Below, piece after piece: positions 6,354 to 17,588 of a stretch of DNA of 20,895 nucleotides. The position numbers and the translations under genes were made by a program. Each line of letters starts with the position of its first letter. Within the stretch, counting starts at the first letter, position 1. Under the pieces are notes generated by a model. The model did not search any database, had not been told where the DNA came from, and saw only the letters and a program-made list of their open reading frames with translations. Origin of the DNA: a virus (Duplodnaviria; Heunggongvirae; Uroviricota; Caudoviricetes); the IMG/VR virus record IMGVR_UViG_2703718846_000002. One strand, given 5' to 3'.

Positions 6354-7403
6354 GTGCGGGTATTACTTAGACCTGTTCTGGTGCCTGAGCTTGGGCTGGT
6401 GGTCCTTAAGCCGGGCCGTGAATCCATACAGATATTTCATAATCCTCGAGTGCTGGTGGAACCGGAACCAAAAAGCATGCGTAATCTGCCATCCGGAGTC
6501 GTTCCTGCCGTTCGCCAGCCGCTGGCGGAAGACAAAACATTGCTGCCGTTTTTTAGTAACGAACGGGTGATTCGTGCTGCTGGCGGCGTTGGCGCATTGT
6601 CCGACTGGCTATTACGTCATGTTACATCCTGCCAGTGGCCTAATGGCGATTACCATCACACTGAAACAGTCATTCACCGTTATGGTACCGGCGCAATGGT
6701 GTTGTGCTGGCACTGCGACAACCAACTGCGTGACCAGACATCGGAATCACTGGAGCTGCTTGCTCAACAAAATCTGACAGCATGGGTGATTGACGTCATC
6801 CGTCACGCAATAAGCGGTACGCAGGAGCGGGAATTATCTTTGGCTGAATTATCCTGGTGGGCGGTCTGCAATCAGGTGGTGGATGCACTACCTGAGGCTG
6901 TATCGCGTCGTTCGCTGGGATTACCAGCGGAAAAAATCTGCTCGGTGTACCGCGAAAGCGACATCGTACCGGGAGAGCAGACCGCCACCAGCATATTGAA
7001 ACAACGCACAAAAAATCTTGCACCGTTGCCTTACGCCCACCAGCAACAAAAATCACCACAGGAAAAGACGGTGGTAAGCATCACCGTTGATCCAGAGTCT
7101 CCGGAATCTTTCATGAAGCTGCCTAAACGTCGCCGCTGGGTTAAGGAGAAATACACACGTTGGGTTAAGACACAGCCGTGTGCTTGCTGCGGTATGCCAG
7201 CCGACGATCCGCATCATCTGATTGGTCACGGGCAGGGCGGAATGGGAACAAAAGCACATGATCTCTTTGTGTTGCCTTTGTGCAGAAAGCATCACAACGA
7301 GCTGCACACGGATACAGTGGCATTTGAAGATAAGTATGGCTCTCAACTGGAGCTGATATTTCGTTTTATCGATCGCGCGCTGGCAATTGGCGTACTGGCG
7401 TAA
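6354..7403 (+). CDS. ydfU: YdfU-like protein with a C-terminal HNH nuclease motif
   Basis: 349 codons from the GTG at 6354 (the ORF track extends to 6315). C-terminus reads CACCGMPADDPHHLIGHGQGGMGTKAHDLFVLPLCRKHHNELH (CxxC ... DxHH ... GG ... CxxH-H-N ... H). Confidence 0.7.
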   Translation: MRVLLRPVLVPELGLVVLKPGRESIQIFHNPRVLVEPEPKSMRNLPSGVVPAVRQPLAEDKTLLPFFSNERVIRAAGGVGALSDWLLRHVTSCQWPNGDYHHTETVIHRYGTGAMVLCWHCDNQLRDQTSESLELLAQQNLTAWVIDVIRHAISGTQERELSLAELSWWAVCNQVVDALPEAVSRRSLGLPAEKICSVYRESDIVPGEQTATSILKQRTKNLAPLPYAHQQQKSPQEKTVVSITVDPESPESFMKLPKRRRWVKEKYTRWVKTQPCACCGMPADDPHHLIGHGQGGMGTKAHDLFVLPLCRKHHNELHTDTVAFEDKYGSQLELIFRFIDRALAIGVLA

Positions 7404-7416
7404 GTGGAGAACGAGC

Positions 7417-8169
7417 ATGAACCTTGAAGCCTTACCAAAATATTACTCCCCAAAATCTCCAAAATTGAGCGATGACGCTCCAGCGACAGGCACCGGTTGT
7501 TTAACAATTACGGATGTAATGGCAGCGCAGGGGATGGTGCAGTCGAAAGCACCACTTGGGTTGGCCTTATTTCTGGCAAAAGTTGGTGTTCAGGACCCTC
7601 AGTTTGCGATTGAAGGCCTGCTAAATTACGCGATGGCACTGGATAACCCGACATTGAACAAATTGAGTGAAGAAATCCGGTTACAGATTATTCCTTACCT
7701 CGTGAGTTTTGCCTTTGCTGATTACTCCAGGTCTGCGGCAAGTAAGGCTCGCTGTGAGCATTGTTCAGGTACGGGATTTTATAATGTATTGCGCGAAGTG
7801 GTGAAACACTACAGACGCGGGGAATCTGTAATCAAGGAAGAATGGGTGAAGGAACTATGTCAGCATTGCCATGGTAAGGGCGAAGCCAGCACAGCGTGCA
7901 GAGGGTGTAAGGGTAAAGGGATTGTTCTGGATGAAAAAAGAACCCGGTTTCATGGCGTACCGGTATATAAGATTTGTGGGCGTTGTAATGGAAACCGGTT
8001 TAGTCGTTTACCGACCACGCTGGCACGACGTCATGTCCAGAAGCTGGTACCAGACCTGACCGATTATCAGTGGTATAAGGGGTATGCGGACGTCATTGGT
8101 AAACTGGTAACAAAGTGCTGGCAGGAAGAAGCATACGCGGAAGCGCAATTGAGGAAGGTGACGAGATAA
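7417..8169 (+). CDS. quuQ: Late-gene antiterminator Q (phage 82/21-type)
   Basis: 250 codons from the ATG at 7417, with a GGAGA SD. Several CxxC motifs (CEHCSGTG, CQHCHGKG, CRGCKGKG, CGRCNGN). Sits immediately before a promoter and hairpin like lambda pR'/tR'. Confidence 0.8.
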   Translation: MNLEALPKYYSPKSPKLSDDAPATGTGCLTITDVMAAQGMVQSKAPLGLALFLAKVGVQDPQFAIEGLLNYAMALDNPTLNKLSEEIRLQIIPYLVSFAFADYSRSAASKARCEHCSGTGFYNVLREVVKHYRRGESVIKEEWVKELCQHCHGKGEASTACRGCKGKGIVLDEKRTRFHGVPVYKICGRCNGNRFSRLPTTLARRHVQKLVPDLTDYQWYKGYADVIGKLVTKCWQEEAYAEAQLRKVTR

Positions 8170-8200
8170 ATGATTTTTGCTGAAGATGGCGACATGATGT

Positions 8201-8229
8201 TTGCATTTTTCAAAAAATATGGATAAAAT
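8201..8229 (+). promoter_or_regulatory. Sigma-70 promoter downstream of Q (pR'-like late promoter)
   Basis: TTGCAT - 17 nt - TAAAAT, about 30 nt after the quuQ stop. Confidence 0.5.
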
Positions 8230-8274
8230 TTTTTCAACGATGGGCTTTGTATACCCGACGTTAAGAAAAAGTAG

Positions 8275-8298
8275 AAAACCCGCTGATGAGCGGGTTTT
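8275..8298 (+). terminator. Intrinsic terminator (tR'-like)
   Basis: AAAACCCGC-TGATGA-GCGGGTTTT hairpin with a T-run, about 45 nt downstream of the pR'-like -10. Confidence 0.6.
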
Positions 8299-8590
8299 GT
8301 GCTTTAAATGGGGCAATGGTAATGTTGAATCTCATCCCGGGACTCATGTCTGTTAACTTATTATTTAGCTGGTGACTTGGTTATTTGCCTGATGTTTAAA
8401 ATGTTTTCTTCCAGTACAATGTCCCTAAACACAATGAGTCTGCTTATTATATTATTAGCAGAGCTATTACGGCCAAAGTACAGCATAAGCTTTTAAAGCC
8501 AATCAACCAGTCATCAAGACAGACGGGGTTATTCATAAAAACTCTCCATGTGTGATCCGATGGGGCCTGAAATTAAAGCTTTAATATAGC

Positions 8591-8803
8591 TCATGAAAGG
8601 TAAACATTGGCAGCTGAAGGGCCACGCAGACCATTTATCCGGCAAAATTCCACGCGTAATCCGGTGGTAATTTCTTCTGCATCGCGGAGATTGAGCGCTG
8701 AAACATGAAGCTGGACATCGATACGACCATCGGATGGGGTGATAAGACCCTTGCCGCTTTTGCCGTCAAAGGTTTTGACAATTCCTGTCATTTTACGGGA
8801 CAA
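8591..8803 (-). CDS. cspF: CspA-family cold-shock-like protein (CspF/CspH type)
   Basis: 70-aa [30 protein letters not shown]...[13 protein letters not shown], divergent from cspB as in Qin. The cspF versus cspH call rests on position only. Confidence 0.8.
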
Positions 8804-9103
8804 AAAAATTCCTTAATACTGATAACTTGGCGCACTATACACACGTTCCTGAAGAAAGCTATAGTTTTTTGATGGGGTTGAAGATGGCTGGATGTCTAAA
8901 ATAAACATTGCTTCATATGTTCAACTATGCGTTAATGATTGCGTCGGTTTGAAGAACAGACGATATACGAAGTAGTTTACTAAAGCAGTTCTCATTTCAG
9001 GTGTTATTCACTTATTCCTTCTTTGAGTCTCTCCAATTAAGTACGAAGTCGTTTCTGTTATGCAAACCATTTATGCCGAAAGGCTCAAGTTAAGGAATGT
9101 AGA

Positions 9104-9319
9104 ATGTCAAATAAAATGACTGGTTTAGTAAAATGGTTTAACGCTGATAAAGGTTTCGGCTTTATTTCTCCTGTTGATGGTAGTAAAGATGTGTTTGTGC
9201 ATTTTTCTGCGATTCAGAATGATAATTATCGAACCTTATTTGAAGGTCAAAAGGTTACCTTCTCTATAGAGAGTGGTGCTAAAGGTCCTGCAGCAGCAAA
9301 TGTCATCATTACTGATTAA
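9104..9319 (+). CDS. cspB: Cold-shock protein CspB
   Basis: 71-aa [70 protein letters not shown].... The 5' UTR carries a GCCGAAAGGC hairpin before the SD, as in cspA. Confidence 0.9.
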
Positions 9320-9600
9320 AATTCATCGCTCGTCTGTATACGATAACGAAGAAGGCTGATGCCTGAGTAGAGATACGGACAGAGTAGTGAATATTGGATC
9401 TCTTTAATAAAAAGTAAGGAGGTCCAATACATGAAACAATGGCTAGCATATTTGGCAAAATCTTAATCAGGAAAAGTATGCTAACCATTGTGGTGAAGTG
9501 CAGGTTTGCTGCATGAATAGTTTTACAGCAGAAGCTAACTGCTGGCATGGCAAAACAAAGTGCGTAAGTGGATGACTCCCACAAAAAGCACCACAATCTC

Positions 9601-9623
9601 AAACCCGCTCAGGCGGGTTTTTT
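9601..9623 (+). terminator. Intrinsic terminator with the same stem as the tR'-like hairpin
   Basis: AAACCCGC-TCAG-GCGGGTTT followed by TTTT. Confidence 0.55.
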
Positions 9624-9682
9624 ATTATCTGCTTTAAATATATTATTAAAATATAAAAAATACTTGTTACTAATAAAATCAA

Positions 9683-9853
9683 TCAGGCTACAGCTTTAAG
9701 ATTTGTCTGGAATACTTTGTTGCAATGAGGGCAGATCAAAAGGGCACCTTTTTGTACTCTTGAAAAACTGTGTTCTGACTCTTGGGTGCAGTTTGGGCAG
9801 GAACATTTAACGAGATAATTACGGCGTGATTTTGAGTTTTTACGTTCTGACAT
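9683..9853 (-). CDS. Small zinc-ribbon protein, Com-like (CxxC ... SF ... CxxC)
   Basis: 56 codons from an internal Met with an AGGAAA SD: MSERKNSKSRRNYLVKCSCPNCTQESEHSFSRVQKGALLICPHCNKVFQTNLKAVA. The ORF track extends it to 9904. Confidence 0.45.
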   Translation of the reverse strand: MSERKNSKSRRNYLVKCSCPNCTQESEHSFSRVQKGALLICPHCNKVFQTNLKAVA

Positions 9854-11628: not shown

Positions 11629-11990
11629 GGTAATATTAAATCGGAACATTTACATCGCGGAATGTAAAATTTAAATAAAAAGGACTCTTCCATGAGCCAA
11701 AATTCCTGAAATCTTAAGGGTAAGATAAAAGGTCTTAATCAGAATGACACGTTTTATTAATAAATAAAGCTATTCTTTCATTGCTGTGTTTTTCTTTACA
11801 AAAGTAATCCTTGCTATGGGTGGTTAATCATGCGTTAATGGTGTTCTGGTTTGTTACAAATTTATCTGAAGCAGTCATTGTTATAATTTTATTATTTGTA
11901 CCTCTTGAGATTTCCTTGTTGGTTTTTCTCTCTGATATTTTTTTTCGGACCATTCTGCCCAAGGGCTAATTTCTTCAAAAGGTAATAATT

Positions 11991-12203
11991 ATGTCTAACA
12001 AAATGACTGGTTTAGTGAAATGGTTTAACCCTGAAAAAGGTTTTGGTTTCATCACGCCGAAAGATGGCAGCAAAGATGTGTTTGTCCATTTCTCAGCAAT
12101 TCAGAGCAACGATTTCAAAACATTAACTGAGAATCAGGAAGTTGAATTTGGTATTGAGAACGGACCTAAAGGTCCTGCCGCTGTTCATGTAGTGGCGCTT
12201 TGA
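11991..12203 (+). CDS. cspI: Cold-shock protein CspI
   Basis: 70-aa [73 protein letters not shown]. Confidence 0.9.
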
Positions 12204-12407
12204 GGTAGACAATATTACAAACCATATTCACTTTAGATGCCCGTGTTGTCATGGTTCCCAGTATAGAACATCATCTTTTGATGTTTCTGACATGAATCCT
12301 TTCGGGGCAAAATGTATCTTTTGTAAATCAATGATGATTACATTTGATAATATTTCACAATACTTAAATGCCAGCCGTCTGTCGTTGGATTTAAAAAAGT
12401 GAAAATG

Positions 12408-12430
12408 AAGGCTCCTTCGGGAGCTTTTTT
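12408..12430 (+). terminator. Intrinsic terminator about 200 nt downstream of cspI
   Basis: AAGGCTCC-TTCG-GGAGCTT hairpin followed by TTTTTT. Confidence 0.5.
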
Positions 12431-12474
12431 GCTTGGTGTCTATTCGATGGATACTCACATACTACGGTAACATC

Positions 12475-12705
12475 ATGAAAAAAATCATAGTTTTTTTTAA
12501 CTCTGAACCAGCAGTGGTAGTGCCAGCGATGACTGGAGTTAACACCATCATGCGTGAATATCCAAATGGCGAAAAAACACACCTTACTGTAATGGCCGCA
12601 GGGTTTCCATCTCTGACCGGAGATCATAAAGTCATTTATGTAGCCGCGGATCGACATGTTACTTCAGAAGAAATTCTGGAAGCAGCAATAAGGCTCTTGA
12701 GTTGA
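12475..12705 (+). CDS. Hypothetical small protein
   Basis: 76 codons from the internal Met MKKIIVFFNSEPAVVV...; balanced composition but a weak RBS. A competing minus-strand ORF (12391..12657) looks less protein-like. Confidence 0.3.
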   Translation: MKKIIVFFNSEPAVVVPAMTGVNTIMREYPNGEKTHLTVMAAGFPSLTGDHKVIYVAADRHVTSEEILEAAIRLLS

Positions 12706-17013: not shown

Positions 17014-17588
17014 TGGCATTCAGAATGAGTGAACAACCACGGACCATAAAAATTTATAATCTGCTGGCCGGAACTAATGAATTTATTGGTGAAGGTGACG
17101 CATATATTCCGCCTCATACAGGTCTGCCAGCAAACAGTACCGATATTGCACCGCCAGATATTCCGGCAGGCTTCGTGGCTGTTTTCAACAGTGATGAGGC
17201 ATCGTGGCATCTCGTTGAAGATCATCGGGGTAAAACGGTTTATGACGTGGCTTCCGGCGACGCGTTATTTATTTCTGAACTCGGTCCGTTACCGGAAAAT
17301 GTTACCTGGTTATCGCCGGGAGGGGAATATCAGAAGTGGAACGGCACAGCCTGGGTGAAGGATACGGAAGCAGAAAAACTGTTCCGGATCCGGGAGGCGG
17401 AAGAAACAAAAAACAGCCTGATGCAGATAGCCAGTGAGCATATAGCGCCGCTTCAGGATGCTGTGGATCTGGAGATCGCAACGGAGGAAGAAACCTTGTT
17501 GCTGGAAGCCTGGAAAAAGTATCGGGTGTTGCTGAACCGTGTTGATACATCAACTGCACCGGATATTGAATGGCCAGCACTGCCGTAG
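17013..17588 (+). CDS. tfaQ: Tail fibre assembly protein
   Basis: 191-aa [42 protein letters not shown]...; its start overlaps the stop of the fibre remnant (TAATG). Confidence 0.85.

Follow-up and report, generated by a model that had tools for sequence, protein, structure and literature searches.

A conserved multi-helix RNA domain predicted in the 3' untranslated region of the prophage cold-shock gene cspB

The cspB–ynfU interval of prophage Qin

The viral DNA record IMGVR_UViG_2703718846_000002 (Caudoviricetes; 20,895 nt, the whole of which is called the window below) is 100% identical to the cryptic prophage Qin of Escherichia coli K-12 MG1655, read on the reverse strand, and K-12 coordinates are obtained by subtracting the window position from 1650658. 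The genes of the locus are arranged in the order ydfU, quuQ, cspF (minus strand), cspB, a structured region that is the subject of this study, ynfU (minus strand), essQ/ydfR/rrrQ/rzpQ, and cspI. The curated K-12 record NC_000913.3 has no annotated feature in the interval between cspB and ynfU, and the same 400 nt are present in 1640 of the 5426 complete E. coli genomes (~30%). A first-pass annotation of the sequence had drawn a compact unit of about 200 nt in this interval (9409–9623), consisting of an 11-codon mini open reading frame (mini-ORF) with a near-perfect ribosome-binding site, a hairpin, and an intrinsic terminator, and had read it as a leader-peptide, small RNA (sRNA), or small-protein gene rather than random intergenic sequence.

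Folding of 9320–9630 gave −105 kcal/mol (z = −6.9, equalled by none of 100 shuffles), and the region as a whole is therefore far more structured than chance. Upstream of it, the 5' untranslated region (5'UTR) and coding sequence of cspB match the cspA thermoregulator of Rfam (RF01766, 8943–9335). Taken together, 9320–9626 is most likely a long, highly structured 3'UTR of cspB with no separate mini-gene. We hold with high confidence the combined reading of a structured 3'UTR that contains a genuine, conserved RNA domain, together with a mini-ORF that does not function as a gene. The compact unit of the first-pass annotation was mis-delimited, as it combines the closing part of one RNA module (hairpin D2 and the RNA end behind it) with the opening part of the next (the domain P0–P4 and the terminator).

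A multi-helix RNA domain with covarying helices

Downstream of D2 lies a conserved RNA domain of ~160 nt (9436–9597) with the helices P0 to P4 (Table 1). In an alignment of 41 distinct variants (A1), in which the helices were placed by eye, standard pairs occupied 92.9% of the cells, versus 26–55% when the 3' partners were slid by 1–3 columns. Fourteen of 40 pairs were changed on both sides, and the observed covariation was reached by 0 of 500 shuffles. The best supported helix is P1, the long-range stem that closes the core, with the pair types G-C/A-U (25/13), A-U/U-A (24/15), A-U/G-C (25/16), and U-A/C-G (39/2); in P3, the outer two stem pairs covary. G-U pairs are frequent in the helices and would be C-A mismatches on the opposite strand, which identifies the + strand, that of cspB, as the functional RNA strand. 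The alignment also contains 1- and 2-nt indels, which exclude coding on either strand. Two overlapping ORFs were accordingly rejected: a 97-aa minus-strand ORF (9309–9602, annotated as hypothetical in phage PhiR42_1), on account of the indels, its broken frames in phage Cyrano, and the G-U-rich covariation, and a 43-aa plus-strand ORF (9568–9699), on account of the 1- and 2-nt indels and the same covariation.

The hairpin CAGCAG-AAGCUAA-CUGCUG, which the first-pass annotation had placed after the mini-ORF, is indeed present and forms helix P3 of this larger domain. Its loop is identical in every copy recovered, a result to be read with the fact that every collection pattern demanded that loop. 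The single-stranded 12-mer AAAGUGCGUAAG is likewise identical in every copy, also in scans demanding only P3. Between sequence types, core identity is 62–92%. A candidate pseudoknot of 4–5 bp between J2/3 (9519–9523) and the P4 loop (9573–9577) is feasible in every lineage, and of the three pairs in its core, two are conserved in 41/41 variants and the third in nearly all; because there is almost no double compensation, we rate this pairing as possible.

To compare the element with known RNA families, the window and five other lineages (L003, L004, L103, L126, and L130; L-numbers label individual loci or lineages) were searched against the 4227 models of Rfam 15 at E up to 10, and no family matched the element. 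The RNA-family covariance search that the first-pass annotation had proposed thus yielded no family at its gathering threshold; the best scores over 9395–9666 were 16–23 bits against thresholds of 41–60, from models that aligned the terminator (isrK, Trp_leader, and P9). A tRNA-like cloverleaf, considered for the 9-bp closing stem and a 7-nt loop, was rejected, given that ARAGORN found 0 genes in the window and the junction lengths are incompatible. A literature search (cspB together with ydfS, ynfU, ProQ, or RNA motifs; subscription journals lay outside its coverage) found no paper on this RNA. The domain is new in the sense that it is unannotated in K-12, absent from Rfam, and without a describing paper found.

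Collectively, these sequence comparisons indicate that 9436–9597 is an unannotated multi-helix RNA domain, encoded on the + strand, with covariation-supported helices. Two points weigh against this reading. The covariation comes from ~7 sequence types in one bacterial family, and hence from few independent events, and the upper half of P1 is inseparable by covariation from alternative local pairings that RNAalifold prefers.

Table 1. Features of the cspB–ynfU region and its surroundings (window coordinates)
Feature	Position	Strand	Details
quuQ	7387–8169		Q antiterminator
cspF	8591–8803	−	
cspB coding sequence	9104–9319	+	upstream gene whose transcript would carry the element
D1	9321–9392	+	first 3'UTR hairpin; from folding and lineage comparison
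D2	9392–9429	+	15-bp hairpin; 5' arm 9392–9406, loop 9407–9414, 3' arm 9415–9429
Mini-ORF MKQWLAYLAKS	9431–9466	+	11 codons; overlaps P0ext and the P0 5' arm; judged fortuitous
Major in vivo RNA 3' ends	9432–9434	+	Term-seq (Adams et al., 2021, PMC7815308, Supplementary file 1)
P0 hairpin and P0ext	9436–9491	+	P0 9441–9453:9474–9486; P0ext 9436–9440 ACAAU : 9487–9491 AUUGU
P1	9487–9597	+	long-range, closes the core; 9487–9495 AUUGUGGUG : 9589–9597 CACCACAAU
P2	9498–9514	+	GUGCAG-GUUUG-CUGCAU; arms 9498–9503 : 9509–9514
P3	9526–9544	+	CAGCAG-AAGCUAA-CUGCUG; arms 9526–9531 : 9539–9544
Invariant single strand	9557–9568	+	AAAGUGCGUAAG; A-rich linker before it
P4	9568–9582	+	GUGGA-UGAC-UCCCAC; arms 9568–9572 : 9578–9582
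Terminator	9601–9626		intrinsic, bidirectional, T run on + strand; stem 9601–9608 : 9613–9620
ynfU	9683–9853	−	convergent, zinc-ribbon small protein; frequent but not obligatory neighbor of the element
essQ (holin), ydfR, rrrQ, rzpQ			lysis genes after ynfU, before cspI

Two mutually exclusive pairings of one strand

The segment 9487–9491 can pair either with 9593–9597, forming the lower 5 bp of P1, or with 9436–9440, forming P0ext, and the two pairings are mutually exclusive. P0ext and lower P1 both covary with these same columns, A-U to U-A transversions included; the P0ext pair types are A-U/U-A (16/13) and C-G/U-A (27/12). RNAalifold picks P0ext, the isolated core folds with the full P1, and once P0 is attached, the centroid departs from the minimum-energy structure by branch migration. 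Constrained folding of the 41 variants placed the energy difference between the two states between −6.9 and +2.4 kcal/mol, with −0.5 kcal/mol in Qin. Since 9487–9491 covaries with two mutually exclusive partners, the RNA is probably a two-state molecule; the covariation and the folding models point to selection for two alternative folds that would be near-isoenergetic in Qin, and the domain is probably bistable.

Such a domain could be a riboswitch-like switch that binds a ligand or a protein and controls read-through downstream, in which the P1-closed junction would be the aptamer and the exchange of P0ext and P1 the expression platform; the targets would be the terminator at 9601–9623, with essQ and the lysis genes behind it in Qin, or, in some lineages, a ynfN-like gene that starts 55–70 nt past P1. 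The architecture agrees with this, namely a multi-helix junction with invariant junction and loop nucleotides, the possible pseudoknot between J2/3 and L4, and two mutually exclusive covarying pairings. So do a ynfN-like ORF directly downstream on the same strand in L092, L137, and L142, a U run immediately after P1 in the PHB10-type copies, and the position of the Qin element between the late promoter and the lysis genes. However, several lineages leave nothing downstream to regulate, the element being followed by a strong terminator and then by a convergent gene in Cyrano/SSU5, in L103, and in Qin (where that gene is ynfU), and its constant partner is the upstream csp gene, with no constant gene downstream. 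We therefore consider a riboswitch-like function quite unlikely.

The Shine-Dalgarno motif of the mini-ORF is an arm of hairpin D2

The ribosome-binding site that the first-pass annotation had noted 7 nt before the ATG of MKQWLAYLAKS exists: the Shine-Dalgarno (SD) motif TAAGGAGGT occupies 9415–9423 and is followed by a 7-nt spacer and the ATG at 9431. The window contains the exact 9-mer a single time, and 3 occurrences at up to one mismatch compare with 3.2 expected, so that the motif alone is statistically unremarkable. The entire motif lies inside the 3' arm of D2, where it is fully base-paired, and folding of 9390–9434 gave this hairpin as one dominant structure (−18.3 kcal/mol, z = −6.8). 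At the position of D2, the Cyrano-type and L103-type lineages have an unrelated strong hairpin, and the PHB10-type has no strong hairpin. The 5' arm of D2, UUGGAUCUCUUUAA, resembles the 3' end of 16S rRNA, UUGGAUCACCUCCUUA. D2 is in effect an intramolecular SD:anti-SD duplex, perhaps as a mere consequence of pairing to a perfect SD.

Published Term-seq data locate the end of an abundant RNA at this hairpin. In Supplementary file 1 of Adams et al. (2021, PMC7815308), strong 'orphan' 3' ends on the K-12 minus strand are listed at 1641226 and 1641224 for each of the three growth conditions, with average reads of 604,404, 1,233,565, and 2,464,295 in the three conditions. By the convention of that table, in which the 3' end is base 51 of the printed 61-mer, these ends fall on the T of the mini-ORF ATG (9432) and on 9434, 3–5 nt past the D2 stem, and among the entries compared, their counts are in the range of the minus-strand values of well-expressed RNAs, e.g., rpsT and sroA. 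We found no promoter-like site on the + strand between cspB and the element, so the abundant RNA is most simply the cspB transcript or a stable 3' fragment of it. Most simply, then, D2 caps the main stable cspB-derived RNA, and this RNA stops where the mini-ORF would begin.

D1 and the SD hairpin D2 would together make an abundant RNA of ~113 nt ending at 9432–9434. The apical motif of D1, ACGAAGA-[small covarying hairpin]-UGAGUAG, recurs in the Cyrano, L103, L126, L129, and L130 lineages, and its GAGUAG opposite CGAAGA presumably resembles a loop-E or bulged-G module.

The mini-ORF is most likely a lineage-specific accident

The mini-ORF reads ATG AAA CAA TGG CTA GCA TAT TTG GCA AAA TCT TAA. 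In 167 Qin-type copies, four peptides were found: MKQWLAYLAKS (91), MKQWPAYLAKS (37), MKQWPAYLAIT (36), and MKQWPAYLAKP (3). The four variable nucleotides among these copies are all nonsynonymous, a Leu to Pro change included, and none is synonymous; four variants without a synonymous change give no sign of purifying selection on the peptide. In the L015 copy, TGG is changed to TGA, which leaves MKQ and a stop at codon 4, and L140, a natural deletion variant in an Escherichia sp. genome, is without the SD hairpin, the mini-ORF, and P0 and keeps P1–P4. Neither the mini-ORF nor the SD hairpin is present in the Cyrano/SSU5, L103, L130, PHB10, and Enterobacter/Kluyvera-type homologues. The mini-ORF has no regulatory codon runs, and the supplementary file of the K-12 ribosome-profiling study of Stringer et al. 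(2021) has no entry for its coordinates or peptide.

We weighed these data against translation of the mini-ORF as a leader peptide or small protein, in which the ribosome would melt P0ext and P0, free 9487–9491 for P1, and thereby act as an attenuator in the Qin lineage. The perfect 9-nt SD, the 7-nt spacer, and the AUG suit this reading, as does the overlap of the ORF with the 5' arms of P0ext and P0, through which a translating ribosome would shift the balance between the two states. The 167 Qin-type copies also retain the SD core and the frame; this retention carries little weight, as these copies are >95% identical. On the other hand, the SD is locked in the −18.3 kcal/mol stem, the main RNA in the Term-seq table ends at the AUG, none of the other lineages has the ORF, nor does L140, the 4/4 nonsynonymous substitutions and the premature stop alter the peptide, and neither regulatory codon runs nor an entry in the Stringer et al. 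(2021) supplement were found. A functional leader peptide is thus highly improbable, and we regard the mini-ORF as most likely an ordinary, lineage-specific accident of the sequence that forms P0ext and P0. What speaks against dismissing it is that a perfect SD, accurate spacing, and an AUG are an unusual combination, and translation under cold shock or prophage induction is possible.

Of the reading in the first-pass annotation, what survives is that the interval is not random intergenic sequence and contains a real, conserved, structured RNA; the leader-peptide or small-protein part does not, with the SD sequestered, the RNA ending at the ATG, and the ORF unconserved. It had named a lack of conservation in related prophages, together with a failure to detect a discrete transcript or translation, as what would refute its unit, and on conservation the two components part: the RNA domain is conserved across lineages, and the mini-ORF is confined to Qin-type copies. 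The case also cautions against calling a small ORF solely because an SD precedes an ATG; the 'perfect' SD of this one belongs to the arm of a hairpin at an RNA 3' end.

A terminator, bidirectional in Qin, follows the element in some lineages

The intrinsic terminator that the first-pass annotation had placed at 9601–9623 is real. It consists of AAACCCGC-TCAG-GCGGGTTT and a T run (−12.8 kcal/mol, z = −5.0), with an 8-bp stem, 5 GC pairs, and T6. The Term-seq table (PMC7815308) lists a 3' end at K-12 1641060 on the plus strand, which is window 9598 on the minus strand. This end indicates that the ynfU transcript stops at the 9601–9620 hairpin and, therefore, that the terminator is bidirectional. 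A terminator with a U tail follows the element in the Qin, Cyrano/SSU5, L103, and L130 lineages; P1 is not followed by a canonical terminator in PHB10 or in the Enterobacter/Kluyvera lineages.

Given a terminator at the end of the domain and an abundant RNA end before it, the element could be a processed, trans-acting sRNA. RNase E would cut in 9429–9440 and free an RNA of ~190 nt (9435–9623) that ends at the terminator, and AAAGUGCGUAAG or the AAGCUAA loop would pair with host or phage mRNAs or sponge another sRNA. The abundant upstream 3' end of the Term-seq table lies exactly at this linker, the 12-nt single strand is invariant even where it was not selected, an ARN-type A-rich stretch precedes AAAGUGCGUAAG, and the canonical terminator with its U tail is found in Qin, Cyrano/SSU5, L103, and L130. 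Moreover, phage late-region sRNAs of such logic exist, e.g., StxS (PMC7547250). Against these stand the lack of a matching terminator 3' end in the Term-seq table and the fact that neither a RIL-seq-derived table of RNAs nor the Hfq-CLASH supplements list the 3' region of cspB. In addition, the PHB10 and Enterobacter/Kluyvera lineages do without the canonical terminator, and a junction with many invariant nucleotides is atypical of base-pairing sRNAs. We judge a trans-acting sRNA to be rather unlikely, for both its release and its mode of action.

The RNA domain accompanies csp genes on phages, prophages, and phage-plasmids

A distant BLAST search with 9320–9682 as the query matched six Qin-like lambdoid phage records and parts of Cyrano (108 kb) and PHB10, two phages unrelated to these, for a total of 8 deposited phages. 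In both Cyrano and PHB10, the matched segment lies 3' of a csp gene, which is unannotated in Cyrano. Pattern scans found the element in >120 IMG/VR contigs and in 29 species-representative genome records. The genera are Escherichia, Shigella, Kosakonia, Enterobacter, Phytobacter, Kluyvera, Superficieibacter, Pseudescherichia, Raoultella, Leclercia, and Atlantibacter, and one of the 29 records is a metagenome-assembled genome labelled Veillonella parvula with a Qin-type copy. A further ~98 carriers are phage-plasmid-like plasmids from Klebsiella, E. coli, Citrobacter, and Enterobacter, most of them non-mobilizable (roughly 100–240 kb, mostly ~110 kb). In the one plasmid inspected, a 'cspG' gene and the element lie amid phage-type replication genes. 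An attempt to widen the family through YnfU homologues returned solely near-identical Qin-type loci.

In two sets of distinct variants (34/36 and 26/29), a same-strand csp gene has its stop codon 128–221 nt before the element; the exceptions are mostly copies truncated at the locus edge or interrupted. Each csp gene that carries the 3' element also has the Rfam cspA thermoregulator in its 5'UTR. By nhmmer, there is exactly one copy of the element per locus and no second copy, e.g., after cspI. The surrounding cassette, conserved as well, consists of a zinc-ribbon ORF and a cspF-like gene divergent from csp, then the RNA, and often a convergent ynfU-like zinc-ribbon gene and a ynfN-like gene. 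Of all these neighbors, only the upstream csp gene accompanies the RNA constantly.

This mobility raises the question of whether the element is a passive stability element or a hitch-hiker, the hairpins merely blocking 3' exonucleases and the conservation reflecting the recent horizontal spread of the csp cassette. The cassette is mobile and many of its copies are nearly identical, and a stable 3' end at the foot of a hairpin, as in the Term-seq table, is typical of exonuclease trimming. However, the Csp proteins, with the sequences judged by eye, appear substantially more diverged than the RNA core, which is 62–92% identical between types and has invariant loops. Compensatory changes preserve five helices, and a simple exonuclease block needs no junction, invariant single strands, or two covarying pairings. 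A purely passive role is in our view very unlikely.

Several further observations concern the cassette and its surroundings. Its genes encode a zinc-ribbon protein of 56–62 aa, a CspF-like protein of 66 aa, a Csp of 71–72 aa, a YnfU-like zinc ribbon of 54–56 aa, and a YnfN-like protein of 75 aa; it was seen in L126, L128, L129, L130, L131, L137, L142, L127, and L092 (~1.5 kb on each side) and in the window at 8591–9853 and 11991–12705. The ynfN gene of K-12 seems to be annotated from an internal Met of a longer ORF (12433–12705). Phage Cyrano (OV696614, L003) has an unannotated cspA-family gene at 2131–2345 with an Rfam cspA thermoregulator 5'UTR, in a gap of ~850 nt left empty in the deposited record. 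At L079, unrelated sequence abuts the element immediately 5' of P1, and P1–P4 are kept. Together with L140, this natural breakpoint suggests, at the level of sequence, that the core P1–P4 is the unit retained. In L137 (Raoultella lignicola), tandem GCCTGAAA units are inserted between P2 and P3 (J2/3) and the P4 stem is mismatched; this element may be a decaying copy. The Rfam STnc100 sRNA scored above threshold ~0.4–1.2 kb downstream of the csp cassette in two unrelated lineages (L004, 3788–3989; L130, 2941–3070). The other Rfam matches at gathering level in the window are IS009 (17356–17554, 221 bits) and a cspA thermoregulator over the 5'UTR and coding sequence of cspI (11845–12230).

A possible role at the 3' end of csp transcripts

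As our leading hypothesis, we tentatively propose that P0–P4 acts in cis on the csp transcript and controls the fate of the 3' end of the csp mRNA, a role that we rate as possible but somewhat less likely than not; the processed sRNA discussed above is its main rival. The cspB transcript would normally run to 9601–9623, the first terminator after cspB, and would then be cut or trimmed back in the AU-rich linker 9429–9440, so that what remains is the upstream RNA with its hairpin cap, as detected by Term-seq. Which of the two folds forms would depend on temperature or on the Csp proteins acting as RNA chaperones. Because P0ext covers part of the linker, the fold could decide whether 9429–9440 is exposed and whether the distal domain and the terminator are removed. 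As an outcome, the stability of the csp message would be set or the domain released as a separate RNA.

A stronger version, which we regard as unlikely, is that P0–P4 represents a new class of two-state 3'UTR switch that reads temperature or the activity of the upstream-encoded Csp chaperone and whose fold would govern how the message is cleaved, how stable it is, or where it terminates. Speculatively, the J2/3 consensus AGUCU, in the strand that would form the proposed pseudoknot, resembles the GUCUUUA-type motif preferred by cold-shock domains. If this were true, csp genes of mobile elements would have gained an autoregulatory sensor at the mRNA end opposite the known 5' thermosensor.

Two points count against a cis-acting role. 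The end at 9432/9434 in the Term-seq table may reflect an endonuclease cut, exonuclease trimming, or termination. The same table has no + strand 3' end at ~9623, where its minus-strand floor of ~23,000 reads means that a weaker + strand end would go unlisted. On balance, we consider the whole explanatory package, i.e., the 3'UTR anatomy, the fortuitous mini-ORF, and the cis-acting domain, to be moderately probable.

E. coli K-12 is the most thoroughly annotated bacterium, and yet a 160-nt covarying RNA domain has gone unannotated beside its cspB gene. The domain is spread over phages, prophages, and ~100 phage-plasmids in clinically relevant Enterobacteriaceae. If functional, it would add a regulatory layer at the 3' end to cold-shock gene expression, and the Qin copy would offer a tractable chromosomal model in K-12 for 3'UTR structures that control mRNA fate or yield regulatory RNAs.

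Comparison with known systems

The element invites comparison with transcripts of the lambdoid late region. Like lambda 6S RNA (pR' to tR') and StxS (PMC7547250), it is located downstream of Q and ahead of the lysis genes in the late region of a lambdoid prophage, with an intrinsic terminator at its end; unlike them, it also occurs outside late operons, and the pR'/tR' unit of Qin lies elsewhere. The late promoter of Qin directly follows quuQ at ~8200–8250, with the sequence TTGCAT-17 nt-TAAAAT-tttttc-AACGATGGG; the lambda pR' counterpart is TAAATT-tgactc-AACGATGGG, whose pause-inducing element is matched exactly by the final nine bases of the Qin sequence. Its terminator is at 8277–8301. With the late promoter, pause element, and terminator located at ~8200–8301, a 6S-like pR'/tR' unit at 9409–9623 was rejected. 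The Term-seq table (PMC7815308) lists a 3' end at K-12 1642356 (window 8302) in 3/3 conditions, which fits a constitutive short pR'-tR' transcript in a cryptic prophage. A further end, at window 8470 (K-12 1642188, minus strand), appears in one of the three condition sheets of that table at a hairpin antisense to ynfS and is probably read-through from the pR'-like promoter.

With the trpL and leuL attenuators, the element shares a short ORF that overlaps one arm of mutually exclusive helices and a terminator downstream. It differs from them in that the SD is sequestered rather than accessible and the RNA 3' end of the Term-seq table falls on the AUG. Moreover, its ORF is unconserved and has no regulatory codons, and the Rfam Trp_leader match is sub-threshold and aligns the terminator. 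Nor does a regulated operon follow, the element being followed by a bidirectional terminator and the convergent ynfU, and on phage-plasmids likewise by a terminator and a convergent gene.

The architecture of riboswitches is also present, with a long-range P1 that closes a junction, nucleotides in the junction and loops that do not vary, a pseudoknot that may form between loop and junction, and one segment with mutually exclusive partners. Unlike riboswitches, the element lies after, not before, its constant partner gene, and it matches 0 of the 4227 Rfam models. The cspA thermoregulator (RF01766), a cold sensor in the 5'UTR, is presumably found on the same transcripts and is likewise structured with alternative folds; the element sits at the other end of the mRNA, has no similarity to it in sequence or model, and lies beyond the 8943–9335 that RF01766 covers. 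By their defining features, then, the element is neither a leader-peptide attenuator, nor tRNA-like, nor a lambdoid pR'-tR' transcript, nor a member of any Rfam family.

RNAs derived from the 3' ends of enterobacterial mRNAs include CpxQ, SroC, and DapZ, and mRNA 3' ends can be bound by ProQ or Hfq, as in the protection of the cspE 3' end by ProQ. The features of an Hfq-dependent 3'UTR sRNA are mixed in our element: the terminator is present in four lineages and absent in others, the seed-like 12-mer is invariant, and the RIL-seq and CLASH tables searched have no record of it. The element shares with the 3'UTR-derived RNAs a presumed co-transcription with an upstream ORF, a conserved 3'UTR whose stable 3' end is capped by a hairpin, a possible processing site in the AU-rich linker, and, in several lineages, a terminator with a U tail. 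Unlike them, it is without a canonical terminator in some lineages and without an Hfq interactome record in the RIL-seq-derived and CLASH tables, and it is a far larger and more complex element, with five helices, a junction, and two covarying folds, that is borne by mobile elements.

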